Below, in pieces: positions 19,418-55,061 of a stretch of 64,000 nucleotides of DNA. Under the pieces are notes generated by a model that saw only the letters and a program-made list of their open reading frames with translations, searched no databases and was not told where the DNA came from. Within the stretch, counting starts at the first letter, position 1. Every line of letters begins with the position of its first letter. The stretch lies in the NCBI RefSeq assembly GCF_056746865.1, contig NZ_CM163382.1. One strand, given 5' to 3'. The translations under genes were made by a program, and so were the position numbers.

Positions 19418-19609
19418 GTGAGTCAGGCAACCAGTATGCGAAAACGACACCGATTTAACAGTCGCATGACCCGTATCGTACTGCTCATCAGCTTTATCTT
19501 CTTCTTTGGCCGTTTTATCTACTCGTCCGTCGGTGCATGGCAGCACCATCAGAGCAAAAAAGAAGCTCAGCAATCCACACTCTCCGTCGAATCACCGGTA
19601 CAACGTTAG
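19418..19609 (+). CDS. yfgG: small membrane protein YfgG
   Basis: 63 aa with one hydrophobic helix, in an AT-rich intergenic region between pdeF and yfgH. Confidence 0.55.
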   Translation: MSQATSMRKRHRFNSRMTRIVLLISFIFFFGRFIYSSVGAWQHHQSKKEAQQSTLSVESPVQR

Positions 19610-23234: not shown

Positions 23235-23732
23235 TCAGTGCCACGATTTTTGCTTCTTCAGTGAATCGTATTGCTGTTCGCAGGATTCTCCTGCAATCCG
23301 ATACTTTTCAGCCTCAGCTGCTGTTGCGTTGTAAACTCGATTGCTTTCTTCAAGCATGTCGGCGAGCACACCGATGACCTTGCTGGCTGGCGTGCCAGTG
23401 GGGAAAGATCCGGTATAGTGTTCGGCGAGTCGCTTGGTTTTGTCAAGCTCGGCGCGCAGGCTGTCAGCAGCGGCATTAGCATGCTCAGCATCAACACGCG
23501 CCACATCGATACGGGATTGTGCTTCACGTTCAATTTGTGTTTTCTCCTGATCACGTTGTGACCTGGCCTTATCATCAGCCTGTTTCTGATCTTCCTGTGC
23601 CTGCGCATACCCGGCATCGTACTGGCGACTGCCGTGTATATTCCAGGCAACCACTCCGACGGTAAACAGAGCAGCAAGAATCACCACGATAAGCAGTTGT
23701 TTCCAATATGCTTTTACGAATGCCCAGATCAT
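23235..23732 (-). CDS. Rz-like inner-membrane spanin (i-spanin)
   Basis: 165 aa; N-terminal TM helix followed by a charged coiled coil; immediately downstream of the endolysin. Confidence 0.65.
23258..23506 (-). CDS. Rz1-like outer-membrane lipoprotein spanin (o-spanin), embedded in the +1 frame of Rz
   Basis: ORF wholly inside the Rz gene; lipobox LLTAC and a proline-rich mature region. Confidence 0.55.
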   Translation of the reverse strand: MWRVLMLSMLMPLLTACAPSLTKPSDSPNTIPDLSPLARQPARSSVCSPTCLKKAIEFTTQQQLRLKSIGLQENPANSNTIH

Positions 23733-24358
23733 ATAGCCAGCACCTTACTGGCAGTGACGTACCGCGCGCGCCGGTCGTCGATGCCGTTCCGGCCACCATT
23801 GATAATCAGAGTTACACGTGCAATATCACCGGTATACTTCATGCATCCTTTGCTGGCAAAGAACCACGCCGCGCTACGAGCCGCGTATTCGTCCTGCGCC
23901 AGCAGTTCAGGATTCTCCAGCAAGTCCACTTTCAAGCCGTTTCCGCAGTCACGATAGTTATTCAAACCGGTAATCTGGATAAGTCCGCGACCTCGGTAAT
24001 TCCAGCCATCGCCGGGGGCATTGTTCCCCATGCGTTTGCTGTACACCAGATTGGCAATCGCTCTCTGGCGCTCAGGTGGCAATGGTGGTTCACCAGCACG
24101 GCGCCCCAATGCGTTGGCCTGTCCCTGAGTGAGACGCCCAGCCCGAACGAAGTTAGCCAGTCCGCTGACGCTGTAGTTGAAATTTTCCTGCAACCGGGTG
24201 AAACCTCCAGACTCATGCCCGACCTGAGCAATAAACATTGCCTGATCTTCTGGTTTGCTGATACCAAACTCTTTCATCGCAGAAGTTATATGCGAGAACC
24301 AGCGTGCGGCAAGCGCCTCGCTAATACCAGCAGCTCGCTGGAATTGTTTAATCTCCAT
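23729..24358 (-). CDS. endolysin, glycoside hydrolase family 19 (chitinase-like lysozyme)
   Basis: 209 aa from [11 protein letters not shown]; GH19-type motifs ([21 protein letters not shown]). Confidence 0.8.
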
Positions 24359-24656
24359 GTTTAGACCTCGATACTTTGAAAATTTGAACGACGTTACCGC
24401 GCGTTTTAATAACCGCAGCGAGCATGACAGCGTTGATAATGACCTCAGATAAATCCACAGCCATTGGCGTGCGGAACCAGATTGCATAGGCAACACGAAC
24501 CGGAATACTGGCCGCAGCAACAATCAGGAAATAAGCAAGCCACCCCCCCCATCTTCGATGTTGAGATCCGTTACGCCGGAATGTGACAACACGAATTGCT
24601 ATGCCAGTACAAATAACTGCATTGGTGATAAGTAAAAACAGGTCATGCGTTACCAT
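24348..24656 (-). CDS. small membrane protein, putative holin or antiholin
   Basis: 102 aa with 2-3 predicted TM helices; overlaps the endolysin start. Confidence 0.5.
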
Positions 24657-25059
24657 CGTCTTTTCTCCCCGGAATTAACTCGCGTGGATTATCGGAACGG
24701 TGATAGAGCCAGATACCAATTCGCACTGCGACAATTGCTGATACGAATGCGCCAGCAGAGAAAACAATCCCTTTCTCGAACGAGTCCTGCGTGATGGTAG
24801 GGATCAGGCTGGCTATGCCGATAAGAATTGATGCTGCTGGTTTGTAAAAAAGAAGGCCGCAGAGAAAGCTAAGCATCGACAAAAGCACACGACGACGAAT
24901 GGGATACTCTACCGCAGAGGTAACAAAAATTACCGCTCCAGCCAAAGACCCCAAAGCAACCTCGGGAGGAACTCCTGCTATCACCGCCGCCAGAGAAGTC
25001 ATGCTAAGCCACTGATTCAAAGAATCACTGGTTGTCTGAATTGACATGATAAACACCAT
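24643..25059 (-). CDS. membrane protein, putative holin
   Basis: 138 aa with several hydrophobic helices; first gene of the lysis cassette. Confidence 0.5.
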   Translation of the reverse strand: MVFIMSIQTTSDSLNQWLSMTSLAAVIAGVPPEVALGSLAGAVIFVTSAVEYPIRRRVLLSMLSFLCGLLFYKPAASILIGIASLIPTITQDSFEKGIVFSAGAFVSAIVAVRIGIWLYHRSDNPRELIPGRKDDGNA

Positions 25060-25372
25060 TTATTTCACATAAACAACTCCATTAAATAAATGTTTATCAT
25101 ACACAATAAACCATTTATGGATAATTATTACTCGTGATTTTTATGATTATTCGCGCATTTTTCTATCATTTTTATCCAGTGTGCCGTAAAACCACGTCCT
25201 TAAGGGCGTGGATGATGTCAACTGATGATGTCAACTATTGGCTGGCTTTGACTGATATTGCAGGAGTTGTTGGATAAGATTTAAGTGACCGTCAAAGCGG
25301 TCACTTATGAGAAAAGGAAGTTAGACAAAGTGGCAAACAGGCTCATTGATGGCTACGTCAATGACCAAGGTT

Positions 25373-27775
25373 TCATTCAGACTCCAGCAACTCTATCCTG
25401 GCGAGAAGCGCTTCATATTTATCAAGTAATCGAGAGTAGTTCCTTCGTTGCATTGCAGCTTCCATTACCAACATTTCTTCATAACGAATGCCGTAACGGG
25501 AACCAGCTTCTATAGCAGGAGTGATTACCTCACCGGTTTCATCATCTATGACGGCAGGAGTGTCACCCCATTCATCATAACAGATGAAACCAAAGCGATG
25601 AGCATCAAGACCATGCCTTTCGAATGCCTCCACGTACCGTTGAGCAATGGCGCCGAAGTGCCAGCGGGCGCCATCAGCGCCTTTTTCTTTAATCCTATCC
25701 AGATACTTATACTGGACTAGCTGAACCTCTTCTGCGGCATCGAGAATGGCATCAGTCATTAGTAATGGGTCTGATTTGCAAATGGCATCTGACGTGATAG
25801 TGAACGCCGTTTGAGTGAATCCACCAGACCACGGAAACGAACTTGCCCCGCAAGGATAGGTATTTGCCGTGGCAGGACGTATTTGCTTCACAGCAAATAC
25901 GTGCGACGTCATTTCTGCTGTACCAGAACCCGTAACGCCGGGATCTCCACCAGAGACACGTAAAATCCCTGTAGGGACAGATGAGTCCGTCGATGAATAA
26001 AAGCGAATCTGCTGTGCTTCTGCAACACCAGGGTTACATAGCTTAATAGCTTTAGTTGTGAACGCATTAGTATCCGTATCAAATATCCAGTATCTGTTGT
26101 TTGAACCACCATCTATAATAACGTTCGCAAGAGATACACCAACTCGCTGTATATTAGAAATATTGTTAGCATTAGTACCAGCAGTTAACTGAATACCCCT
26201 TGTGCAATTATTTACACGCGAGTTACTAATAGTATTATTAGCAGCAAATCTAGTGCCAGCGGTATTTCCTGTCAGGAGAGTATGCGTAGTGTCCTTACTG
26301 AAGCCTGTCAATAACACCTCATTATTAGTGAACGTACCGTACTGAGCACATGATTTAAAACCGATATAAGGTGTGGTTAAATCCTCAGGAATACCATTCC
26401 ATACCATACAAAAGTTATCTGTAATTACACTATGGTTTCCTCCATTGTTAGACAAATCACCCAACTCTACAGCACTTATGGAAGTATTGAAGTGGTTATT
26501 TGTAACCTGGAACAGGTTACCAACATTGTTTTCAGAAACAACTCCGCGGCGACCAGCAATGATATGGTTACCGAAAACCACAACACCTTCGGTATCGTCA
26601 TGCGCGTACATGAAGGTGTCGAAGTTCTGATAAGAACCATTGACAATATTGATATTCTTTGTTGAGTACAGGTCGAATATTTTACCCATTCGATATGCTG
26701 GTACAGATGTTCCTCCACCAGTTACGTTAACGCCGTCAAATACACACTGACCAGCTCTGCTTAGCTTAAAGACAGTATCAAAAGAGGATTGAGTACCAGC
26801 ATCATTTGACACATCCAGGTCACGAACGATAAGTTGTCGGGCGTATTCGATTCCCCCTGTCCCTAAAAACGTAAGCGCAGTACCCTGAAGTTGCCCGGTA
26901 GCTTTTATCGTGAAATTACGTAAACCAACAGGTTTTCTTACTACAGTCGTACCCGAGTTATCAATGATAAGACCATATCCAGCAGCAAATTTTATTCCGC
27001 ATGTAGCCATGCTTACGCCAAAAACATCACTATAAAAATTAGTTACTGAGATGTCGCTTGAGCAGTTGTATATACGACGAAGCTTAATATCTAGACCAGT
27101 TTCCTTTGCTGCAGTAAAGGCATTGATCAGTGCCAAGGTATCATCAGCATCACCTCCAACAGCGCCAAAATCCTCAGGAGTGAGTGATTCCCTCATTTTA
27201 TCCTGGAACGTTCGGTATACTGCCCCATAACCATACTGAATAAACCAACCAAAACCACCAACAACCCCGGCGATTGCAGCATCGACATAATTACGCATTG
27301 AGCGATTATTTACAGCGTCCTGCTCAAGTGATGGATCTGCAAGGTTAGAAATTCTGTTTTGCTTTGCATCGTAATATTTTGCAAGCAAAGATGGTTTCAT
27401 CAATGCACGTCTGAACCACCCAAAACATTGCTGGATCAGCATCGTCAGGTAGTCAAAGGCATCTTCATGCACTTCGGGAAAAAACTTTCCCTGATTGCGA
27501 AGGTCTGTCTCCTGTACTACATCAAGCACACGATCTATCGTAATTCGCCATCCAGTAGCAAGCGGAGACGGAAGAACCACAGAACCGCCACTATAAGTGC
27601 CCGCCCCAGTTACCGTATAACCGGTATCCAGAACCAATTCTGTTACGTTCCCGTTCAGGTCAGACACCTGAACAACCAGGTCTGATTTTCTGAAAATTCG
27701 AAAAGTATACGGAAACGATGTCGTAACGCCGTTACCTGTGTATTCGTTGTGGTCAACTTCGGTTGAGACCGTCAT
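25373..27775 (-). CDS. tail fiber / tailspike with C-terminal intramolecular-chaperone (peptidase S74-like) domain
   Basis: 800 aa; central region rich in N/G/T/S repeats typical of beta-helix receptor-binding domains; C-terminal segment resembling the auto-cleaving chaperone of endosialidase-type fibers. Confidence 0.75.
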   Translation of the reverse strand: MTVSTEVDHNEYTGNGVTTSFPYTFRIFRKSDLVVQVSDLNGNVTELVLDTGYTVTGAGTYSGGSVVLPSPLATGWRITIDRVLDVVQETDLRNQGKFFPEVHEDAFDYLTMLIQQCFGWFRRALMKPSLLAKYYDAKQNRISNLADPSLEQDAVNNRSMRNYVDAAIAGVVGGFGWFIQYGYGAVYRTFQDKMRESLTPEDFGAVGGDADDTLALINAFTAAKETGLDIKLRRIYNCSSDISVTNFYSDVFGVSMATCGIKFAAGYGLIIDNSGTTVVRKPVGLRNFTIKATGQLQGTALTFLGTGGIEYARQLIVRDLDVSNDAGTQSSFDTVFKLSRAGQCVFDGVNVTGGGTSVPAYRMGKIFDLYSTKNINIVNGSYQNFDTFMYAHDDTEGVVVFGNHIIAGRRGVVSENNVGNLFQVTNNHFNTSISAVELGDLSNNGGNHSVITDNFCMVWNGIPEDLTTPYIGFKSCAQYGTFTNNEVLLTGFSKDTTHTLLTGNTAGTRFAANNTISNSRVNNCTRGIQLTAGTNANNISNIQRVGVSLANVIIDGGSNNRYWIFDTDTNAFTTKAIKLCNPGVAEAQQIRFYSSTDSSVPTGILRVSGGDPGVTGSGTAEMTSHVFAVKQIRPATANTYPCGASSFPWSGGFTQTAFTITSDAICKSDPLLMTDAILDAAEEVQLVQYKYLDRIKEKGADGARWHFGAIAQRYVEAFERHGLDAHRFGFICYDEWGDTPAVIDDETGEVITPAIEAGSRYGIRYEEMLVMEAAMQRRNYSRLLDKYEALLARIELLESE

Positions 27776-27879
27776 GTTAAATCTCCAGATAGTCGCAGCA
27801 CCCGTTGCGCCGCATATCTGGTTATTCTATTACCTGAAAAACCACATATGGATAGAAAGGCTGTAAATACGAATAGATA

Positions 27880-27894
27880 TTACCTTTCAGGTAA
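27880..27894. promoter_or_regulatory. operator-like inverted repeat TTACC-TTTCA-GGTAA upstream of the tail fiber gene
   Basis: Perfect 5-bp half-sites, 15-bp site identical to 44822-44836. Confidence 0.5.
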
Positions 27895-27956
27895 TTTGCA
27901 AAACGTGCTGGATAGCAAACAAATTATTTGCTACTGTATAAATATACAGTTATTGC

Positions 27957-28229
27957 ATGGAGAAGATTAAGATGCAGCAGTATCACTATCCACTGGAAGA
28001 CGGATTTACCGAAAGGATTCACACGCCGGGAGGCGTCAGGTCACTGGTGGAGGGATCGCACTTGATGAAATTACTCCGGGATCTCGATAAGGATGGATTT
28101 AATGTCGATGGCCCACTTGCCGAACTGACTGCACTGATTAACTACGTCACCAGCTCACAGATGTCTATGCGGGATCTGCAAACACATCTCGACTATTGTG
28201 CCGAACAATTACGAAAACAAACCCGGTAA
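27957..28229 (+). CDS. hypothetical small protein (moron candidate)
   Basis: 90 aa (85 aa from the second ATG at 27972, which has a GGAGAAG Shine-Dalgarno); opposite strand to all neighbouring late genes; followed by a hairpin at 28237-28252. Confidence 0.5.
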   Translation: MEKIKMQQYHYPLEDGFTERIHTPGGVRSLVEGSHLMKLLRDLDKDGFNVDGPLAELTALINYVTSSQMSMRDLQTHLDYCAEQLRKQTR

Positions 28230-28236
28230 ATTTAAA

Positions 28237-28252
28237 GGCCGCAAGAGCGGCC
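28237..28252. terminator. hairpin GGCCGC-aaga-GCGGCC between convergent genes, probably a bidirectional terminator
   Basis: Perfect 6-bp stem, then the GTGACATGTCAC palindrome and a T-run. Confidence 0.5.
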
Positions 28253-28261
28253 TGTGACATG

Positions 28262-28558
28262 TCACGCTCTTTTTCTGAATGATAGCCATTCGAAAAATGA
28301 TGACATTCCACCGCAGACAATAGCAAAGATGATCCCACCAAAGAAGAGAAGGCCAGCCTGCCACCACTCCCACCGCCATACATCCACAGCGCCAACCATA
28401 CCAACAATCGCTCCAACAAATGGAATATAGCTCACGATGAAAGCAATGGGGGCTGCAATTATCCAGTGCAATCCCCACCATGATTCAAGCCCAGCCATAA
28501 TTGCTGCCAACTGAAAAAGACCAACGACGATATAAACAATGAATCCTATAGCTTGCAT
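28262..28558 (-). CDS. small polytopic membrane protein, unknown function
   Basis: 98 aa with 3 hydrophobic helices and several Trp residues. Confidence 0.55.
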   Translation of the reverse strand: MQAIGFIVYIVVGLFQLAAIMAGLESWWGLHWIIAAPIAFIVSYIPFVGAIVGMVGAVDVWRWEWWQAGLLFFGGIIFAIVCGGMSSFFEWLSFRKRA

Positions 28559-28570
28559 GTAGTCACCTAT

Positions 28571-28744
28571 TTACCCAGTAAAAATCAGAGGCCTCCCCTC
28601 AATAAGGCTTGCAACAAGAACTATTCCCTGCACAACAAAGATGAACCAGCAAATAGCTTGAGTCTGAGGGTTAAGAAAATATTTGTAGCGGTCAATAAAT
28701 AACAACCCACCAGAAATTATCACACTCAAAATAATTAAAAACAC
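28571..28744 (-). CDS. small membrane protein, unknown function (below the ORF-track size cutoff)
   Basis: 57 aa from a GTG start preceded by AAGGAAG; two hydrophobic helices; lies between the 824-aa virion protein and the 98-aa membrane protein. Confidence 0.35.
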   Translation of the reverse strand: MFLIILSVIISGGLLFIDRYKYFLNPQTQAICWFIFVVQGIVLVASLIEGRPLIFTG

Positions 28745-28753
28745 AACACTTCC

Positions 28754-31228
28754 TTATTGCGGAGTGACATCCTGAGGTCGCCACCAGTATGTCTGGTTAA
28801 ACTCTTTCTTCGAACGTTGCTCCATTTTACGCAAATAGCCTGGTGAAAAATACTCCTGCATCTGGTTAAAGATCATATGATCGAGAGCCGCCTTTAAGTA
28901 CCAGAGATTCGCACCTGGCATCAAACCTTTCCCCAGCTTCACCAGATCACCACCAGTCTGCTCACTCTTCCCTTCCACAGCATTTAACGGTATGCCCTGA
29001 GCAATCTTCACTACGTCATCAACCAGACCAGCTACCGGGCCAAGCATCGACGCCAGCGCGCCGCTTCCGTACCTAGTGTGATCTGACAATAAAAAGTCAC
29101 CGTAAAGGCCAAGACCACCACCTTTCAGTAGAGCACCAAGCCAAAATTTAGCAGCATCTTCTCCTGTCATCTCGCGAGGATTACGACCAGACGCAAGGTC
29201 GTTAAGTTGCTGCGACAAAGCGCCAAGAATGGTCGTACTGGCAATAAACGTCGCAATATATGCCGCACGCCCACCAGCAGACGGCATACCCATAGCGCGT
29301 GACCAGTGACGCATAACCACCGAGATAGGGAACGATTTAAACAGGAAAACACTTCTCGTTAATTCACCTTTCCATGTTCCACGCTGAATACCAGAACCGG
29401 TTATCAGTTGCTCACGTGCTCCCGGTGTAATAACAGCCATATCAACTTCTTCAGTTACGGCACCGAGCAGTTTACGCATTGCCTCAAATTTCACGCGTTC
29501 AGGCTCACCAAGATGTTTAACTGCTGAATCAGGGATACGCATAATGCTTTCCGGTGTCAGCATCGTATTATTGCCGTTCCCCCAGTCCTCCTGTTGCGCC
29601 AGCTTCCATACGCTCCAGTCTGTGTCAGTAATCCCTTTGCTTTTCAGGATACGAAAATCAGAATCATCGAGGCTACGAAGGTCTGGTGTCCGTGACACTA
29701 CTTCTCCCAGGCTTCCCATCATGGTTACGCCATAGGCGCGCTTGTGCGCATCTGACCATGCTGTAAGCCCACTGGCACGCATTACCGCCGTTGCAGCCCA
29801 ACGAGACACAGACGGCCCCATATTATCCATCGCCCAGCGGTTAACGCTGCCAAGTAGAGATTCCATCGCCAGACCAGCGCGGCGCGCCCGCGCAAGTTCT
29901 GTACGGTTCGTTGGGTCCATAGCTTCAAGCTGGTTGCGGAATAACTGGTTCATTGGAAGGTTGGTAACCTTCGCAGACAGATACATGGTTCCAAGATCAG
30001 AGAACGATGACAGCAACGCGGATCCGAGTCTGCTGGCAACCAGCCAGTTGCGGATATTGTCAGACCATCGCGCGATGTGCGGATTCGCTACAGGCTGTGT
30101 CTTTCCGGAAATAAAATTGTACAGATTCTCTGTGTTGTTCGCCAGCCGCTCGACTTTACCGGTTTTACTCGGGTTAGCTGTTGCCGTTTCTGCCTTCACC
30201 TGATCAAGAAGAGAGCGGAAAACATGATCGGGGTTTGGGCCATATGTTTCCACCAGTGCAATATCTTTACTGATACCTTCAAGGTGACCGACCATGATTT
30301 CCCATAGAGAGCGATCGCCATAAAGTTGCTGATATTGCAGATAGGAATCTGCATCTTTGAAATGTATCTGTCGTGATGCATTACCACGGTTAGCACGTGC
30401 GCCGGAAATTCGCATTCCGGTATCAGTAAGCTTATTCAGCCCACCAGTAGCGATCGTGTTATAAGCCTCTCCAAGAAATGCAGACAACTCGGCATCGTTC
30501 ATCAGTTGTCCATCGGCTCGGGTATAATATTTGCGATCCAGCTTACCTATAACATCGCTAACCCATTTATCTTTTGATACCGCCCCAACCTTTTCCATAG
30601 AATGATGTTGAGGGATCCCCCAGTTTTCGAGATAGCCAATGTCCCCACCAGCATCATTAAACCGGCGGCGCAGCAGCTCTGTAACTTCTCTCCACGCCTT
30701 AGCACCTTTTCTTGCTTTAGCATTGCCAGTATTTTGCCCCCGCATTTCATATACCAGGTCACGTACGCCCGCTTCATCTTCAAACAGACCAAAAAAGCGA
30801 GGATCAACTGCTTCGAATGCCTCCTGCAATTGACTCAATGCATAATCACGGGTGGCTTTTGTTCTGGATTCAACAGAGAGGAAATTCGATTTACCGTCTG
30901 CATTAAAAGCAATAGTACGGTTAAGAGCGCCAAGTTTCCCATCAGCCCCTTGATAGCTATTGATAAATTTATCCAATCTCTGACGTGCGGCTATAGTGAG
31001 GGCCACACGACGTTTCTTTAATGCCGCTTCTCGCTGTAATTCTTCAGATGCCAATTGTGCTGCACGATACAACCGTTCTGATTCGGAAAGTTGTCGCCAC
31101 GACATCGGGTCATCACGAGCAATGGAGCGCATATTTCGATAAATGCGGTCTTCAATGTTCTGTATTTCTCGCGCCGTTAACGTGCGCTGCGCCGCCTGCT
31201 GGACCGCTTGTATACATTCCTGTCTCAT
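28754..31228 (-). CDS. large virion-associated protein (internal virion / ejection protein candidate)
   Basis: 824 aa; placement within the structural gene block. Confidence 0.5.
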   Translation of the reverse strand: MRQECIQAVQQAAQRTLTAREIQNIEDRIYRNMRSIARDDPMSWRQLSESERLYRAAQLASEELQREAALKKRRVALTIAARQRLDKFINSYQGADGKLGALNRTIAFNADGKSNFLSVESRTKATRDYALSQLQEAFEAVDPRFFGLFEDEAGVRDLVYEMRGQNTGNAKARKGAKAWREVTELLRRRFNDAGGDIGYLENWGIPQHHSMEKVGAVSKDKWVSDVIGKLDRKYYTRADGQLMNDAELSAFLGEAYNTIATGGLNKLTDTGMRISGARANRGNASRQIHFKDADSYLQYQQLYGDRSLWEIMVGHLEGISKDIALVETYGPNPDHVFRSLLDQVKAETATANPSKTGKVERLANNTENLYNFISGKTQPVANPHIARWSDNIRNWLVASRLGSALLSSFSDLGTMYLSAKVTNLPMNQLFRNQLEAMDPTNRTELARARRAGLAMESLLGSVNRWAMDNMGPSVSRWAATAVMRASGLTAWSDAHKRAYGVTMMGSLGEVVSRTPDLRSLDDSDFRILKSKGITDTDWSVWKLAQQEDWGNGNNTMLTPESIMRIPDSAVKHLGEPERVKFEAMRKLLGAVTEEVDMAVITPGAREQLITGSGIQRGTWKGELTRSVFLFKSFPISVVMRHWSRAMGMPSAGGRAAYIATFIASTTILGALSQQLNDLASGRNPREMTGEDAAKFWLGALLKGGGLGLYGDFLLSDHTRYGSGALASMLGPVAGLVDDVVKIAQGIPLNAVEGKSEQTGGDLVKLGKGLMPGANLWYLKAALDHMIFNQMQEYFSPGYLRKMEQRSKKEFNQTYWWRPQDVTPQ

Positions 31229-31233
31229 TTAAT

Positions 31234-33036
31234 TTAACCTCTCAAGAAACACGCCACAGCAACATCAAACAGGCTGGAATCCTGTATTGCCTGCTCACTT
31301 TCCCTGTTCGCTTCATCCAGTACTTCACGCGCACTGCGCGATTGTGGATTACCATCATCATCCAGCACGGTGATTATCATGTCAGGTGATTCAAGCAGCG
31401 AGTCTTCAGCTATGCGCAGATCAATATCTCCTGCCTGATCTGACATCATTTTTTGTTCTGCCTGTTGCAATATTTTATCAGGCTCAAAAGGAGCTACTTC
31501 GTCTGGCGTCCTGACCTCTGCTGTTTTATAGAATGAAACAGCCTGAGCATTAAGTTCACTTTCTGCCTGCTGTCTCCGAGCCAGTTCTGCTCGAGCTTCA
31601 AAAAACTGACCGCCAGGCTCGTGCGGTGCCAACGCGTTACGGGAAAATTCCAGGCGTTCTTGTGCCTGCCGGATTCGTTGATCAATATCGCGAAGTCTGG
31701 CCTGTTTATCTGATCGAGCACGAGACAAAGCTTTACCGCTACCGGTTGGCTCTTCTGCAAGAATTTGTGCACGCTGTTCAGTGAGATTTTCAATAATTCG
31801 TTGGCTATTAGCGATTTCAGACTGGTAAACCTGTCTATCTCCACGCGGCAAAAGCTGCGCGGCCTGTTCTTCAAGCAACCGATTTTCTATAGCGCGCGCC
31901 GTTACTCCATCATCTACAGATGACAGAGCCTCATTAACTGCCTGAGACAGCAGACTCTTGCGCCCAGGAATTTCACTGAAAGATGCAGACTCAACAATGC
32001 TGGCAACGTCTACAGGTCTCCCCTGGCTAACATCAGACATAGCTTTTCGCAGAGCCTGAATGTGAGAATTGCGCGAAAGCACGTTGATCGGCACGCCGGG
32101 CGCAATATCAATTTCAGCATGATGAGCGGCATTCGCCGCCAGTGCAGCATCGATATCAACTGGTGAAAAATTTGGTGCGTTTGTAGACTCGCCGCGAGAG
32201 TTAATAAATCTGCCGACACCACCAAACGCCACCCCAAGAACAGCATCAATAGCAATTGCCTGTCGATCCAACACATCATACTGGTTAGCCATTTCGCTAT
32301 AGCCACCATCACGAAGTGTTTTTGCAGTAAGCCCACGCTGTGCCATACCGAACGCAATATTTGTACCTGCGGCATAGGCAATATCTGGCGTTGCACGTAC
32401 TGCTGTTGCTGCGGCGCGTCGCACTGAACTCTCACCCGTCCGCGCAAGCTGAGCCGCCACACCTTCCGCCAGCGCACCACCAGCACGTAACCCGAGGCTC
32501 ATAGGGATCAGCGTTCCGGCACCAGCAGTAATGCCCTGCACTAATCCCGCTTCCTGCGCCGTCCTGAAATCAACACCCTGTGCTGTCAGCCGTTCAAACT
32601 CAGAAAAACCCTGTAGCGAAGTTACCGCCGCTGCACCTCCGACAGGACCACCGAGCGTTGTACCGACAACAGCCTGCCCGCCCATATCGAACAACCCATA
32701 AAGAACCTGCCCGGCGGTTCCAGTTGTCGCGGCATCAGGCGTCAGCCGCTTAACCTGCTGCTCTGCTAGTTTTCTCTGCTCGGCAATGTATGAAACTGAA
32801 GTATCATTGAGCGAGGTGTTTTCGTTAACAAACTGAGCAATCGGGGATACGATTTTATCCATCCCTGCCCATAGCAACTGATCTGGCTTTGCCACCAGCC
32901 CGGAGTACAAACCAGACAATGCCGCTCCTACAGCATTGTCGAAAAAACCAACATCGCTGTTAAAGCCAGCTGGATTTGATGCTGCTTCGTCAAGCTGCTG
33001 ATTCTGGTTTACTGGATTAAGGCCAAAGTAACTCAT
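31234..33036 (-). CDS. virion-associated protein (internal core / ejection protein candidate)
   Basis: 600 aa; Ala/Gly-rich central region; translationally coupled to its neighbours. Confidence 0.45.
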   Translation of the reverse strand: MSYFGLNPVNQNQQLDEAASNPAGFNSDVGFFDNAVGAALSGLYSGLVAKPDQLLWAGMDKIVSPIAQFVNENTSLNDTSVSYIAEQRKLAEQQVKRLTPDAATTGTAGQVLYGLFDMGGQAVVGTTLGGPVGGAAAVTSLQGFSEFERLTAQGVDFRTAQEAGLVQGITAGAGTLIPMSLGLRAGGALAEGVAAQLARTGESSVRRAAATAVRATPDIAYAAGTNIAFGMAQRGLTAKTLRDGGYSEMANQYDVLDRQAIAIDAVLGVAFGGVGRFINSRGESTNAPNFSPVDIDAALAANAAHHAEIDIAPGVPINVLSRNSHIQALRKAMSDVSQGRPVDVASIVESASFSEIPGRKSLLSQAVNEALSSVDDGVTARAIENRLLEEQAAQLLPRGDRQVYQSEIANSQRIIENLTEQRAQILAEEPTGSGKALSRARSDKQARLRDIDQRIRQAQERLEFSRNALAPHEPGGQFFEARAELARRQQAESELNAQAVSFYKTAEVRTPDEVAPFEPDKILQQAEQKMMSDQAGDIDLRIAEDSLLESPDMIITVLDDDGNPQSRSAREVLDEANRESEQAIQDSSLFDVAVACFLRG

Positions 33037-35546
33037 TGCGGAATATCTCCGGAGAATCTCTGACGCTTCTGTGTCAGATTAAGAACAACGGGAGAACCAT
33101 CATCTTTCAGCAGATAACCAGTACCAAGTTTCACCAGGTACTGACTATCGCCGTAACTTTGCAAACCATACTGACCAGGCGGTGTTTTTATCCCAGAGCC
33201 GACAACTTGTTCATTCCAAGCCTGATTAACCTGCTTATCGAATTGCTCTGCAGACATTCCCCACGGCAAAAGGACATTCCCCATTCCGTTATAGTCATGC
33301 ACGCCACCTGTAGCTACGTTAACAGCCTGTTTCCAGACATCATTGTCAATTTCGCCTGATACCACGCCTTTTTTCGCCATCACACCAGCGTAATAATCCT
33401 TTGCGATCTCGTATGCCATTGATGCCCCCTGAGCGTCACCAGCAAATGCATCCTTCACCATGTCAGAAAACTCAAGGCGAAGATCAGCATCTTTAGGCAT
33501 CGGAATACCTTTCGCATCATCAGTACCTTTACGAGCCGCCGCGCCAGCAAGAATTGTCTGCGCAGCGGTTTCAGGAGACACGGAAACATCCGGATTAAAC
33601 CAGTTTTTTTCTGCCAAAATACCACCTGGCTTATCCATCAGTATCCCGGCAACGGCAGCAGATGGAGCGTTGGCACTGATCTGCTGTAGTGCTGACATAT
33701 ACACCTGCCCACCACCAGTGCTCTGCCTGATGGTATCTAGATATGCTGCCTGTTGGGAAACGGGCGCATCACGAAAGAAAACACCGATCTGATTGGCCTC
33801 GTCTTTGGAAAAGAACGTCAGTGGAGTGCCATATGACTTAGCAAGGTCACTGACCTGAGCAGCACGCAAGGCAACGCTCTGTCCAAAGTTATCCTTATTG
33901 CTCATGTCGATAGGCTTTGTCTGTCCGGCGGCAAGAGAGAACTGTACAGGATCAGCCTGTCGCTGCTTTATCACCTGACTTGCAGCCGACACAACGTTGT
34001 CATAAAGAGCGGCTCGTGCCGCATAACCCTCCCCTGTCTCACCAGTATCCGGGCGTAATTGCTCAACATATGCTGTAATGCTGCTTGTCGGCATGTTGCG
34101 GAAAGAGCCTATATACTGTCCGGCGATTTGCGTATTTCTGAACTCGGTATATCGCAGGTTTCCTTCTCTTACTCCATAAGCTGCAATAAAATCAGCCTCA
34201 CCAGGTGGGTTAGGAAATTCAACGCCACGCATATACGCAGCTGTCGCATCGCGAACCTGGCTGTCAATCATCGTTTTATATTCAGCCTGCTGCTGCCGAC
34301 GCAGTTGATCCGCCTGTCGCATAAAACTTGCCTGCGCCTCAGGAGATGCCGCATCGAATGCTGCATTACCGGTATAGCGTTTGGTGTTGGTTGGAATTGT
34401 TGATAAACCAAGTGCTGCACTGACACCAGCAGTTAACTGCTGATCACTGTATGGCTGGCTACCGTTCTCATGATGGATAATGGCTGCACAAAGCGCCTTC
34501 AGGGTATCAGGATTAGATGCATCGAGAGGCTCATCAGCAGAAACGCCAAGTTGTTCGCACACTGCTTTGATATACGACATAGTGTCATTTTTATCAGCAG
34601 GCGGTGCCCAGCGATTAATTATCTCGCTGACGGTATCAATACCCTGCCTCTGATACGACATCAGGTTCCGCCCTAATGCACGAATCCCGTGTTCAGGTGT
34701 TTCGAATTTAGCAAATCGACCATCATCACCGGTCTGGCCTACCCACGGATTAGTTTTGCTGTATTCGAGATTTCCTGGGTTATTGTTGCGTATGCCACGG
34801 GCACGCTCGGAAGAGTCACTATCTGCTACAGCACGGCGAGCTCCAGCAGCAGTATCACTTAACTCGCCATTACTTTGGATGAATGCGGTCGCATTGTTTG
34901 CCGACCACTGGGACAATGCAGCATCAGCAACCTTCTCTTTAAACTCGATTTTCTTGGCCTGGATTTGCTCGTTGCTCCAGCCATGTGCAACACCGTACTC
35001 CTCAATTTGCTGGAAAGTTTGTTTGTTAGCCAATACGTATGCGGCGTTGTCGCCATACAATGCTGCGGCATTTTTACCATTGTTCAGCAGTGTCGCCTGA
35101 AACTGGCCTTCTTCGTAGGCATTAATTTGCCCTATCTCGTGTCGCCCGGCCTGCGTAGTGAACTGAATGCGCTGCTGCTGCGCCTGCTGCATGAAAGCAT
35201 TACGAGCCTGTTCATCCGGCAGCGACATAGCCAGTTGTTCGACCTGAGCATCAAACTGCTGCGTATACTCATGGCCTTTTCCAATAGCATTTTTCCCTTT
35301 CAGGTTAAGCAATCCTGTTTCAGGATTATTCAGCAGATCGCTGCTTATCTGACTGAGGTTAAGAGATGCCTCCTGAGCCAGAGCGATATTGGCACGCTGT
35401 TTTGCCTGCCCCAAAACATCAATTGCCTCTGTCCCTGCCCGAACAAAAGCATCACCAATACCTTGCTGAGAAAACGTCTGCAAGCCTGCTGACTGAACTC
35501 CACGACTCTCAACCTGACGTCCGGATACTGTTGGTACGACTGGCAT
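33033..35546 (-). CDS. large internal virion protein with a possible peptidoglycan-hydrolase-like segment
   Basis: About 837 aa from the ATG at 35546, which overlaps the upstream gene stop; segment GIRNNNPGNLEYS...FAKFETPEHGIRALGRNL resembles a phage virion-associated cell-wall hydrolase motif (recalled, not searched). Confidence 0.45.
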   Translation of the reverse strand: MPVVPTVSGRQVESRGVQSAGLQTFSQQGIGDAFVRAGTEAIDVLGQAKQRANIALAQEASLNLSQISSDLLNNPETGLLNLKGKNAIGKGHEYTQQFDAQVEQLAMSLPDEQARNAFMQQAQQQRIQFTTQAGRHEIGQINAYEEGQFQATLLNNGKNAAALYGDNAAYVLANKQTFQQIEEYGVAHGWSNEQIQAKKIEFKEKVADAALSQWSANNATAFIQSNGELSDTAAGARRAVADSDSSERARGIRNNNPGNLEYSKTNPWVGQTGDDGRFAKFETPEHGIRALGRNLMSYQRQGIDTVSEIINRWAPPADKNDTMSYIKAVCEQLGVSADEPLDASNPDTLKALCAAIIHHENGSQPYSDQQLTAGVSAALGLSTIPTNTKRYTGNAAFDAASPEAQASFMRQADQLRRQQQAEYKTMIDSQVRDATAAYMRGVEFPNPPGEADFIAAYGVREGNLRYTEFRNTQIAGQYIGSFRNMPTSSITAYVEQLRPDTGETGEGYAARAALYDNVVSAASQVIKQRQADPVQFSLAAGQTKPIDMSNKDNFGQSVALRAAQVSDLAKSYGTPLTFFSKDEANQIGVFFRDAPVSQQAAYLDTIRQSTGGGQVYMSALQQISANAPSAAVAGILMDKPGGILAEKNWFNPDVSVSPETAAQTILAGAAARKGTDDAKGIPMPKDADLRLEFSDMVKDAFAGDAQGASMAYEIAKDYYAGVMAKKGVVSGEIDNDVWKQAVNVATGGVHDYNGMGNVLLPWGMSAEQFDKQVNQAWNEQVVGSGIKTPPGQYGLQSYGDSQYLVKLGTGYLLKDDGSPVVLNLTQKRQRFSGDIPQ

Positions 35547-36091
35547 TATAATCCTCCGGGTAATCTGGTTCCTGCTGCTGCCCCGATTGGCGCAGGAGTG
35601 CTTTGAGTAAACGGACTCCACGTCCCACCAAACATCTGGTACGCACCGTATGCCTTCAGAGGCGCAGTGAGCAATGTTGTTGCTGCTCCCACATTCCCCT
35701 GTTTACGGGCTGAACTGGCTTCTGCTTTATAGTTGGCAGCCTGAACCTGATAACCGTAAGCCTCGCGTTGCGCGTTATTCACCGTCGTCAGCGAATCAAG
35801 AGCGCCAAACTGGGCAGTGTCGCCAAATATATCCAGCGCGTTACCTGTAGATAAATCAGCGCCGGTAGCCCCCATTGTCGCCGCCTGTGTACCAAGCCGC
35901 TGTCGGGTCTCTCTGCGTCGTTGCTCAGCTTCAGCGTTACCTCTGTTTATTGCATCATTTGCCTGAGATGTGGCTATATCTGCGTTCGCTTCTGCAACCT
36001 TCGAGGCATACTTTCCCTGTTGGTACTGGGTGTATGCCTGAATGCCACTCATGGCGAGCATTGCGCCACCAGCAATAACCGGATCGCACAT
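35546..36091 (-). CDS. internal virion protein (T7 gp14-like size and composition)
   Basis: 181 aa, Ala/Gln-rich. Confidence 0.4.
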   Translation of the reverse strand: MCDPVIAGGAMLAMSGIQAYTQYQQGKYASKVAEANADIATSQANDAINRGNAEAEQRRRETRQRLGTQAATMGATGADLSTGNALDIFGDTAQFGALDSLTTVNNAQREAYGYQVQAANYKAEASSARKQGNVGAATTLLTAPLKAYGAYQMFGGTWSPFTQSTPAPIGAAAGTRLPGGL

Positions 36092-42542: not shown

Positions 42543-42835
42543 TCCTGTTCACTGGCCTCTTTGGCCATCTTCAAATACTGTTCAGGGCAATGCGCCATAA
42601 CGCGCTGAAACAGTTCCAGCGCCAGATTGCGTTGCCCCTCATTAAATGCCATTGCCATAGCGTCCATCGGCGAGATAGCGGAAAACACACGACCTTTCTC
42701 CAGCACCGACCAGACAACGCGACGCCCCTGTTCACTGCTCATGACAAAGCGAATGTCATCAATTTCACGCTGTGCCATGTCACGTTGCTTACGGGCGTTT
42801 TCTTCTTTCAGTTGATCATCTTCGTAATCTGTCAT
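42539..42835 (-). CDS. hypothetical head-module protein
   Basis: 98 aa overlapping both neighbours. Confidence 0.4.
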   Translation of the reverse strand: MTDYEDDQLKEENARKQRDMAQREIDDIRFVMSSEQGRRVVWSVLEKGRVFSAISPMDAMAMAFNEGQRNLALELFQRVMAHCPEQYLKMAKEASEQE

Positions 42836-45808: not shown

Positions 45809-45898
45809 CACCGTGACATGTCACAAACAGCCAGCCTATGAGCTGGCTTTGTTTTATCCTCACCAGAGGATATCAACGACATTATCCCCACCAGCGGA

Positions 45899-48254: not shown

Positions 48255-48271
48255 AACACCTTCGTGACATG

Positions 48272-48613
48272 TCACACTATTAATTTCGTTTCATGCCAGC
48301 CTTTAGTCACCCAGCATTGTGAGTCACCATTACACGGACATGAATTAACTGGAACTCTCTCGCCGCACTTACCGCAACGTTTTCTACTGATCGATTTTAT
48401 ACGCCCGCGCACGCGTGCATCATCCTGGCGGATCAGTAACGCTATATACTCACCAAATTCGTAAGGCGCACGCCCGGGGCGACGCGCGGCACAGTTACGC
48501 TCAAGCATTTCAATTTCCTGAGCATCAAGCACAATCTCCAGCTTACGTACACCGGATGCAGCTTGTCTGGCTCTCTGAGCGGCTTTGCGCTCTGCTGCTG
48601 ATTTAGCCATCAA
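48272..48613 (-). CDS. hypothetical protein with C-terminal Cys-rich zinc-ribbon-like motif
   Basis: 113 aa; basic N-terminus and CGKCGERVPVNSCPCNGDSQC. Confidence 0.45.
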   Translation of the reverse strand: MMAKSAAERKAAQRARQAASGVRKLEIVLDAQEIEMLERNCAARRPGRAPYEFGEYIALLIRQDDARVRGRIKSISRKRCGKCGERVPVNSCPCNGDSQCWVTKGWHETKLIV

Positions 48614-54476: not shown

Positions 54477-55061
54477 ATGAAAAGTATCCAGGACGTCCGC
54501 AGGCAAAATCTCAACGACTTGATCGACCGTGAATTCAATGGTGTTCAGACGCGGATGGCAGAAAAACTTGGAACTCAGGCAAATCTGGTAAACCGCTGGG
54601 CTCTTGGCAAGAAGGTTATCGGCGACCAGGTTGCGCGAAAAATTGAAGCTGCCGCCAATAAACCCCGTAACTGGCTTGATATCGATCGCTCGCTTTCTCA
54701 GGAAGGTTTTCAGCCTGTCGGCCCAAGCGACATTGGTCAGCTGGCGGCTCACAACCTGGAACGCTGGATGAGCGAAAGCCGCGACCTTTCAACACAGGGA
54801 AAACTTCACCGCGCATCCGGCGTCGCCCAGGTGACAATCAGCCGCCTGTTAAACAATGAGGTCAGCGTTTCCATTTCCACCCTGGAGAATGTTGCATCCG
54901 CATTCGGGCGTCACGGATATGAACTACTGATTCACCCGCACGACCCTGCGACTATCAACTATGACCGCTCACGCTACGCATTGTTACCCGAAACCGAGAA
55001 AGCAAAGATCGAAAGTTACATTGAATTTGTCATCAACCAGAACGAAAAAAGCAAACAATAA
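54477..55061 (+). CDS. CI-like repressor with two XRE-type HTH domains
   Basis: 194 aa; two HTH-like segments (QTRMAEKLGTQANLVNRWALGKK and RASGVAQVTISRLLNNE); divergent from the cro-like gene. Confidence 0.6.
   Translation: MKSIQDVRRQNLNDLIDREFNGVQTRMAEKLGTQANLVNRWALGKKVIGDQVARKIEAAANKPRNWLDIDRSLSQEGFQPVGPSDIGQLAAHNLERWMSESRDLSTQGKLHRASGVAQVTISRLLNNEVSVSISTLENVASAFGRHGYELLIHPHDPATINYDRSRYALLPETEKAKIESYIEFVINQNEKSKQ

Follow-up and report, generated by a model that had tools for sequence, protein, structure and literature searches.

Two described phage systems lie closest to the locus considered here, a group of three small genes (A, now ant; B; and C) at positions 27,957 to 28,744 of a 64,000-nucleotide (nt) stretch of contig NZ_CM163382.1, assembly GCF_056746865.1; the whole of that stretch is called the window below. 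One is the Ant/Rep antirepression system of phage SPC32H, reportedly set out by Kim and Ryu in the Journal of Virology in 2013. The other is phage P22 SieA, which blocks the conduit made by the ejection proteins. The window carries a phiV10/epsilon15-type prophage (genus Uetakevirus) of Escherichia coli, and the three genes stand in it between a tail-fibre gene and the last of a series of large virion genes.

Two papers describe the SPC32H switch: self-cleavage of LexA permits synthesis of Ant, and Ant inactivates the repressor through protein-protein contact (PMC7380047); an Ant tetramer engages two Rep dimers, with the result that the DNA-binding Rep tetramer is broken (PMC9638917). For P22, mutations that escape SieA map to the ejection proteins gp16 and gp20, and sieA lies between gene 16 and gene 9 (PMC10461980).

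The locus can be read as two unrelated things: a switch built on ant, and a cassette of C and B whose cargo interferes with DNA entry. The probability of this reading as a whole is roughly 0.5. One part of the locus is already known, namely Ant; B and C are uncharacterised small membrane proteins at a cargo site. A first-pass annotation, made from the letters of the sequence, had drawn three small genes and a hairpin here, and all of them are in place, with the start of gene A refined to the ATG at 27972. It had also noticed that the soluble gene runs opposite to the late genes around it: A is on the plus strand and both flanking genes are on the minus strand (Table 1). Its statement that none of the three matches a recognised family holds for B and C, for which no informative family match was found, and fails for A, which is an Ant of the SPC32H type (87% identity; chain E of PDB entry 5D50). 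The homology and structure searches it proposed thus identify one gene of the three; for B and C they return no significant functional family, and for the B model no PDB or BFVD fold.

The ant gene and its predicted LexA box

Gene A almost certainly encodes the antirepressor Ant, already characterised as an SOS function under LexA control. The identification rests on homology to Ant and to 5D50 chain E, on a predicted LexA box in front of the gene and on the presence of a Rep homologue elsewhere in the prophage. Over 83 residues the product is 87% identical to SPC32H Ant, and it is 99% identical to phiV10 gp24; with phmmer it matches 5D50 chain E, 'Anti-repressor protein', at E = 1.4e-46. SPC32H has an annotated 86-amino acid (aa) 'ant' in the equivalent position, divergent from its tail spike. 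The longest open reading frame (ORF) form of the gene, 27957..28229, would give 90 aa; the ATG at 27972 is the better start (85 aa), as GGAG stands 9 nt upstream of it and the same start is used in RefSeq, phiV10 and SPC32H. PHROG profiles place the protein in phrog_450, of unknown function (7e-48), and align its residues 27-75 with the C-terminal end of phrog_1760, an antirepressor family (6.6e-7). General collections are less helpful: PADLOC gives no match, Pfam nothing at E <= 0.001, and NCBIfam a single insignificant match (E = 0.026; 13 bits against a cut-off of 400).

The predicted LexA box, TACTGTATAAATATACAGTT, agrees with the LexA consensus TACTGTATATATATACAGTA at 18 of 20 positions, and its core, CTGT-N8-ACAG, occupies 27934-27949. 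It is the sole LexA-type site in the 64-kilobase (kb) window, and none appeared in 100 shuffles. When 12 regions upstream of ant were compared, seven had a LexA box at -39/-40 (this window, phiV10, SPC32H, 65FD, phiv142-3 and two Salmonella prophages), and three more, from Cronobacter, a Klebsiella phage and Citrobacter, had the variant ATGT-N8-ACAG. An inverted repeat, TAGCAAA-N7-TTTGCTA at 27913-27933, adjoins the box on its 5' side; phiV10 has it unchanged, phiv142-3 has it with a mismatch in one arm, and SPC32H and 65FD lack it. The repeat could represent a second operator or have arisen by chance.

The putative partner of Ant is a Rep-type prophage repressor encoded far to the right in the window. 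It is 43% identical to SPC32H Rep over the full length and matches 5D50 chain A, 'Repressor', at E = 3.5e-42. By analogy with the SPC32H literature, from which Ant-Rep binding and induction are carried over to this prophage, the switch would work as follows: in the lysogen, host LexA bound to the box would hold ant off; DNA damage would lead to cleavage of LexA and production of the 85-aa Ant; Ant would bind Rep and dismantle its DNA-binding tetramer; and the prophage would turn lytic. What counts against the identification is that the two Rep proteins share only 43% of their residues, and that both the Ant-Rep pairing and the binding of LexA are predictions in the present case.

Ant residues 2-32 are 45% identical to residues 150-180 of phiV10 gp23, the neighbouring Bro-N protein, encoded at L001 5841-6425. 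Because of this resemblance and of the match to the C-terminus of phrog_1760, the Ant fold may be a stand-alone version of the C-terminal module of larger Bro/Ant-type antirepressors, or may be derived from them.

The ant region is found in about 540 of 5426 complete E. coli genomes, and in phiV10 and the E. coli RefSeq records inspected the gene is still labelled 'hypothetical'. It merits the label ant (LexA-controlled antirepressor) in annotations. The label carries a prediction, that the prophages concerned are SOS-inducible through antirepression and not through repressor cleavage.

Genes B and C and the slot they occupy

B and C are very probably real genes of an accessory cassette for envelope proteins. 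The first-pass annotation called both of them small polytopic membrane proteins, a description that suits B, for which a four-helix model was obtained, better than C, a two-helix hairpin and not strictly polytopic. Gene B matches phrog_3075, of unknown function, over residues 1-97 (2.2e-54). Its hydropathy profile has three hydrophobic segments; the AlphaFold2 model, with a mean predicted local distance difference test (pLDDT) score of 91.7, has four helices (2-28, 32-42, 46-59 and 65-97). Homologues share Trp- and Gly-rich motifs (AGLESWWGLHW, YIPxxGxIVGMxGA and VWxWEWWQAGLLFFGG); the window's protein contains the motifs of the phrog_3075/B family and matches the family over its full length. 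In comparison with the copy in Klebsiella phage BUCT711, 44 of 49 nucleotide differences fall at third codon positions, and the ratio of nonsynonymous to synonymous substitution rates (dN/dS) is 0.018. Named families are of little help with B: NCBIfam and PADLOC have no match, Pfam has nothing at E <= 0.001 (the best entry, Phage_holin_5_2, lies below significance at E = 0.027), and a fold search with the model found nothing in PDB or BFVD at E <= 0.001. The AFDB50 matches to the model support family membership and are themselves uncharacterised; such names as they carry are automatic domain labels.

The B family is a large one: a profile search found 749 clusters at 50% identity. In prophages of Cronobacter, Klebsiella, Salmonella and Yersinia, homologues follow the last large virion gene directly and share its strand; distant relatives are found where other mobile elements keep their early or replication genes, and relatives in AFDB come from diverse Proteobacteria. 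For two further distant relatives the contigs retrieved were about 600 base pairs long and gave no information on gene context. Some members are longer and fused to DUF805, RDD or MORN domains, partners that are uninformative on function. In a 427-aa metagenomic protein (P0059), HMMER matches four stretches of one polypeptide to the B-family profile. On account of these four stretches and of the fusions, the B fold appears to act as a reusable membrane module well beyond phages.

Two settings outside the usual one were looked at more closely. On a metagenome scaffold next to pepN (L018, 4200-5360), an intact B homologue, 70% identical, adjoins 47 codons left over from a podovirus ejection-protein gene; DUF2335 and DinI genes accompany them, and the whole group lies at the edge of a lambdoid prophage. 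Two further metagenome scaffolds (L020 and L021, 1-10312) carry a phage-satellite-like island with integrase, AlpA and primase genes and Abi_2 or SocA_Panacea genes; it encodes an 872-aa transglycosylase protein whose first 210 residues are 46% identical to the 862-aa virion protein of the window, and it also holds a copy of the 12-base-pair (bp) palindrome discussed below, together with an intact B homologue and the decayed remains of part of an ejection gene. That B is a free-moving gene in L018 and L020 was considered and rejected, as a decayed 3' fragment of a podovirus ejection gene lies just upstream of B in both; the two are more likely remnants or recombinants that retained B. The persistence of an intact B in apparent decayed prophage remnants suggests selection independent of virion production.

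Gene C has two hydrophobic segments (residues 1-19 and 30-48) with a conserved DRYKYF loop between them. Homologues of 56-58 aa, 74-98% identical, are found in E. coli, Citrobacter, Klebsiella, Salmonella and Enterobacter. NCBIfam and PADLOC give no match to C, and PHROGs only families of unknown function; it shows no similarity by BLASTP to phiV10 gp21 or to the small membrane protein of 65FD, and none by hhalign to an alignment of gp21-type proteins that includes SPC32H_019. It might be objected that C is a chance ORF in an AT-rich spacer: it has a mere 57 codons, starts with a codon other than ATG, has a G+C content of 37% as against about 49% in its neighbours, and is left unannotated by the NCBI pipeline (PGAP/RefSeq) in E. 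coli FT130, the one close relative inspected. Conservation makes that view very hard to sustain. Eighty IMG/VR loci carrying B (L033-L112) were examined, with C counted at >=73% identity; it was found in 65 and was intact in all 65, in 26 nucleotide alleles, with exactly 57 codons in 64 loci and always a GTG or TTG start. The gene is conserved in five genera. The Klebsiella phage copy, at 82% nucleotide identity and a dN/dS of 0.17, has its start in the same position (TTG for GTG), is of the same length with the stop preserved, and retains the ribosome-binding site. The ribosome-binding site ahead of the start is AAGGAAG or AAGGGGGA, and in the loci checked 9 nt separate the end of the 824-aa virion gene from the start of C. 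The low G+C content was also considered as a sign of foreign origin and is uninformative, given the codon bias of membrane proteins.

Among E. coli prophages one mosaic breakpoint coincides with the hairpin (28235-28253) and a second with the stop codon that closes the 824-aa gene (28751-28754). Between the two, C-B forms a discrete, exchangeable cassette, with the last virion gene's stop codon at one edge and the terminator at the other. B plus C occur in 217 of the 5426 complete E. coli genomes, as against about 540 with the ant region; that is, some 40% of related E. coli prophages have the cassette and some 60% lack it. In phiV10 and SPC32H an unrelated 46-aa two-helix protein replaces C and B. 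Across relatives the slot after the virion gene holds at least nine unrelated families of small envelope proteins: after C or instead of it there may be a 126-aa lipoprotein, two-helix proteins of 64, 93, 103, 112 or 54 aa, or proteins of 123 and 102 aa with signal peptides (examples are L025 4279-4659, L026 4275-4556 and L027 4275-4469, and, 0-400 nt upstream of B, L043, L045, L100, L103 and L112). All the occupants examined are predicted to be envelope-directed. No description of such an accessory slot behind the ejection genes was found in the literature searched.

The interval between B and ant is a second slot of variable content. In the window it is empty, and across 80 related loci its length ranges from 8 to about 3600 nt. 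Relatives keep Bro-N genes there, a HicAB-like pair, DUF2335 membrane proteins and small secreted peptides (L004, L011, L012, L024-L026 and IMG/VR loci). The HicA/HicB pair is that of Cronobacter and Klebsiella relatives; one secreted peptide recurs, about 50 aa long and rich in Cys and Gly: MKKALAVLFVLLS...CQHDSDTA.DGSRCGGRSADSRPGG.

C and B are probably the last cistrons of the late virion operon, as far as promoters and terminators can be predicted. Nine nt separate the 824-aa gene from C and 12 nt separate C from B, and each has a ribosome-binding site of its own. A consensus-only promoter scan of the minus strand, reaching about 850 nt ahead of C and B, found no sigma-70-like site. Nor was a terminator-like structure found between the 824-aa gene and C/B; expression is therefore expected late in lytic growth. 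In the L018 remnant the plus strand upstream of B offers only a weak 9-of-12 promoter match, about 150 nt away. As B and C have no promoter-like site, the sequence does not indicate the constitutive expression in lysogens that the first-pass annotation thought worth checking.

The hairpin between the convergent ant gene and late operon has a 7-bp stem with six G-C pairs and was flagged as terminator-like on the minus strand. On that strand a U-rich tail, UUUAAAUUU (flagged as TTAAATTT), follows it, and the hairpin can therefore terminate the late operon. A 57-nt segment around it folds at -17.1 and -17.2 kcal/mol on the two strands (z = -2.4 and -2.9). It is predicted to be a shared bidirectional terminator for the convergent ant and late-operon transcripts, which would both end the late operon and keep the ant transcript from running antisense into it. 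An Rfam scan of 27600-28900 gave no match.

Beside the hairpin lies a perfect 12-bp palindrome, GTGACATGTCAC. There are three exact copies in the window (28254-28265, 45813-45824 and 48264-48275) and one with a single mismatch (42772-42783), where 0.21 would be expected. It was present in 17 of the 27 loci fetched by then, from several enterobacterial genera, and stood at the end of the late operon where this was checked by coordinates, for example in L001, L009, L011, L012 and L027. In phiV10 (L028) both exact copies, 2262-2273 and 19493-19504, adjoin annotated terminators at junctions where opposite-strand genes are inserted. The copy in the satellite-like island (L020, 1980-1991) is 30 nt upstream of the transglycosylase gene. 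The palindrome may be a junction for module exchange or a protein-binding site.

The surroundings are those of the phage group. The 1.1 kb around the three small genes is 97-99% identical to many E. coli chromosomes, and its separate halves match phages phiV10, ZX5, PAS61, phiv142-3 and HEMP4. On one side, the tail-fibre gene is divergent from ant, the same arrangement as in phiV10 and SPC32H. On the other, the 824-aa protein is a homologue of phiV10 gp20 and epsilon15 gp17; its gene is the last of three large genes (28754-35621) in an internal-virion or ejection cluster, after those for a 600-aa protein and an 862-aa, transglycosylase-containing protein, and is syntenic with phiV10 gp18-gp20. 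A review of podovirus ejection proteins covers their homologues in epsilon15 (PMC8954989).

The position had been likened in the first-pass annotation to a site of lysogenic-conversion or exclusion genes. The region is indeed accessory and variable; the O-antigen acetyltransferase of relatives is on the other side of the tail spike, as seen in phiV10, SPC32H, 65FD and E. coli FT130. In the window the 313 bp between the tail-fibre gene and the holin-family genes (25060-25372) contain no ORF longer than 76 aa; the prophage is therefore without the acetyltransferase of these four relatives.

Table 1. Features of the locus and of the rest of the prophage, by position in the 64,000-nt window
Feature	Positions	Strand	Product size	Remarks
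Endolysin-consistent candidate ORF	23729-24523			By position relative to phiV10
Two holin-family genes	24348-25059			Beyond the tail fibre
Tail fibre/tail spike	25373-27775	-	800 aa	N-terminal 227 residues match tail-spike PHROGs
Predicted LexA (SOS) box	27932-27951	+		TACTGTATAAATATACAGTT; 40 nt 5' of the ant start codon
Gene A (ant)	27972-28229	+	85 aa	phiV10 gp24 / epsilon15 gp19 / SPC32H Ant family
GC-rich hairpin	28236-28253	both		AGGCCGCAAGAGCGGCCT; between convergent ant and late operon
12-bp perfect palindrome	28254-28265			GTGACATGTCAC; overlaps the gene B stop codon
Gene B	28262-28558	-	98 aa	ATG start; membrane protein, phrog_3075
Gene C	28571-28744	-	57 aa	GTG start; two-helix membrane protein
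Virion structural protein	28754-31228	-	824 aa	phrog_684 'virion structural protein', E = 0
Rep-type prophage repressor	54477-55061	+	194 aa	Putative partner of ant

Possible roles of B and C

The role favoured for B and C, tentatively and by analogy, is interference with the delivery of phage DNA across the envelope. This could take the form of superinfection exclusion, or of sparing progeny virions a futile ejection into debris or cells already infected. It is favoured because the slot adjoins the genes for the conduit that crosses the envelope, because its contents turn over rapidly and comprise only small envelope proteins, and because P22 sieA sets a precedent. The first-pass annotation had named all three genes as candidates for superinfection exclusion; A leaves that list as Ant, and for B and C an exclusion-type role stays the most plausible guess, doubtful as it is.

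Several observations weigh against such a role. Profile comparison of B and C shows no homology to SieA, and nothing informative came from PADLOC or NCBIfam or, for the B model, from PDB, BFVD or the annotated entries of AFDB. The cassette has no promoter of its own, whereas P22 sieA is on the opposite strand and has one; late expression fits the protection of infected cells and progeny better than it fits lysogen immunity. The B family is very broad, with its 749 clusters, its members in the early regions of other elements and its occurrence beyond phages, and this breadth fits a generic membrane function equally well. Finally, the start codon of C is always a weak one (GTG or TTG).

That breadth is the natural starting point for another reading, in which B, C or both are host-directed cargo that alters membrane physiology (stress tolerance, ion leak or envelope homeostasis) for the lysogen or the infected cell. 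The size of the family, its relatives in diverse Proteobacteria, the DUF805, RDD and MORN fusions and the intact B in apparent prophage remnants next to pepN would all suit it. There is no functional annotation anywhere in the family to say what the cargo does, however; in Uetakevirus-like prophages B is strictly at the end of the late operon and without a promoter-like site, and the many small envelope proteins found beside ejection genes fit phage-phage conflict better. It is on the whole an unlikely account. Apparent co-transcription with late genes could instead point to lysis: small, helical, glycine-rich membrane proteins might be accessories of the holin, antiholin or pinholin type that tune permeabilisation or the timing of lysis, and the Pfam Phage_holin_5_2 match of B (E = 0.027), weak and non-significant, leans the same way. 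The prophage has an apparently complete lysis cassette elsewhere, however, with holin-family genes 3.5 kb away and an endolysin-consistent ORF by position; no PHROG lysis family was matched; about 60% of related E. coli prophages do without the cassette and have lipoproteins or secreted proteins instead; and B also occurs outside lysis contexts. A lysis function is accordingly quite improbable.

B, C or both might also work for the phage itself, in its virion or ejection machinery; as factors in the membrane they might, for instance, help to assemble or handle the three large internal virion proteins. Synteny with the last large virion gene is tight in Escherichia, Klebsiella, Cronobacter, Salmonella and Yersinia, and C always follows that gene by 9 nt. 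Such a service is hardly to be expected of a cassette that is dispensable and exchangeable, phiV10 and SPC32H being viable without B or C; the 3' end of the structural gene is conserved whatever comes next, and integral membrane proteins are unexpected in the virions of tailed phages. Least credible is the view, also raised in the first-pass annotation, that the three genes are a module for toxicity or abortive infection, or that they alter the receptor or O-antigen. The accessory position and the HicAB pair in the adjacent slot of Cronobacter and Klebsiella relatives could be cited for it. Scans with PADLOC, NCBIfam, PHROG and, for A and B, Pfam gave no significant match to anything of the kind. 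Gene A is Ant; PADLOC is silent on A, B and C alike; no acyltransferase, Gtr or polymerase homology was seen (Pfam for A and B; NCBIfam and PHROG for all three); and the known O-antigen genes of this phage group lie beyond the tail spike. Nor are A, B and C one unit, since A is transcribed in the other direction, is separated from B and C by a terminator and is LexA-controlled.

To return to interference with DNA delivery, it can be put in a wider and more speculative form, which seems unlikely as it stands: the 3' end of the late operon in epsilon15/phiV10-like podoviruses would be a dedicated hypervariable site for envelope proteins that block DNA delivery, the B family would be a new class of entry-blocking proteins, and GTGACATGTCAC would mark an exchange or regulatory junction. 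If B does act in this way, a large uncharacterised family of membrane proteins would receive its first function. In that case the cargo of the cassette would also bear on host range in phage therapy and on competition among prophages.

Comparison with described systems

Among larger antirepressors, those of the Bro-N/KilAC type (phiV10 gp23, phrog_1760) have C-terminal parts that stretches of gene A resemble; they differ in size, about 200-260 aa against 85 aa, and in possessing the Bro-N DNA-binding domain that gene A is without. For C, the nearest counterpart in position is the 46-aa 'putative integral membrane protein' of phiV10 (gp21) and SPC32H (SPC32H_019), which occupies the same slot and has the same two-helix hairpin architecture; homology between the two is undetectable by BLASTP or hhalign, and the counterpart is likewise uncharacterised. 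T4 Imm and Sp and T5 Llp are small envelope proteins made in lytic growth, which block DNA entry or mask receptors and so protect the infected cell or the progeny. An exclusion role is therefore compatible with expression outside lysogeny. These proteins differ from B and C in that no homology was detected, PHROGs giving B and C only families of unknown function, with no direct comparison run.

The likeness to the SPC32H Ant/Rep system (PDB 5D50) is far closer. Ant is 85 aa long here and 86 aa there; both genes are divergent from the tail spike, have a LexA box at -39/-40 and are followed by a hairpin, and there is a Rep homologue in the immunity region. The two LexA boxes differ in central positions and in the last base (ATAAATAT...T here, ATGTTTAT...G in SPC32H). 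The repressors are 43% identical, so the specificity of the pairing is a prediction. In all other respects the two systems agree.

P22 SieA is unrelated in sequence to B and C. By hhalign the probability of homology is 0.2% (B profile) and 0.1% (C profile), and neither sequence shows the FnRYPnEAnnFNK motif of SieA types A to C. SieA has 164 aa, and its gene, on the opposite strand, has a separate promoter and is active in the prophage; B and C, both shorter, lie on the late-operon strand with no detectable promoter. What the two phages have in common is the map. In P22, the interval from gene 16 to the tail-spike gene (gene 9) contains sieA, and mnt, arc and ant as well; C and B lie between the 824-aa virion gene on one side and ant and the tail fibre on the other. 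In both, the order is ejection-protein genes, small membrane gene or genes, antirepressor, tail spike. If the cargo of the cassette does block DNA entry, the principle of P22 SieA would extend to another group of podoviruses.

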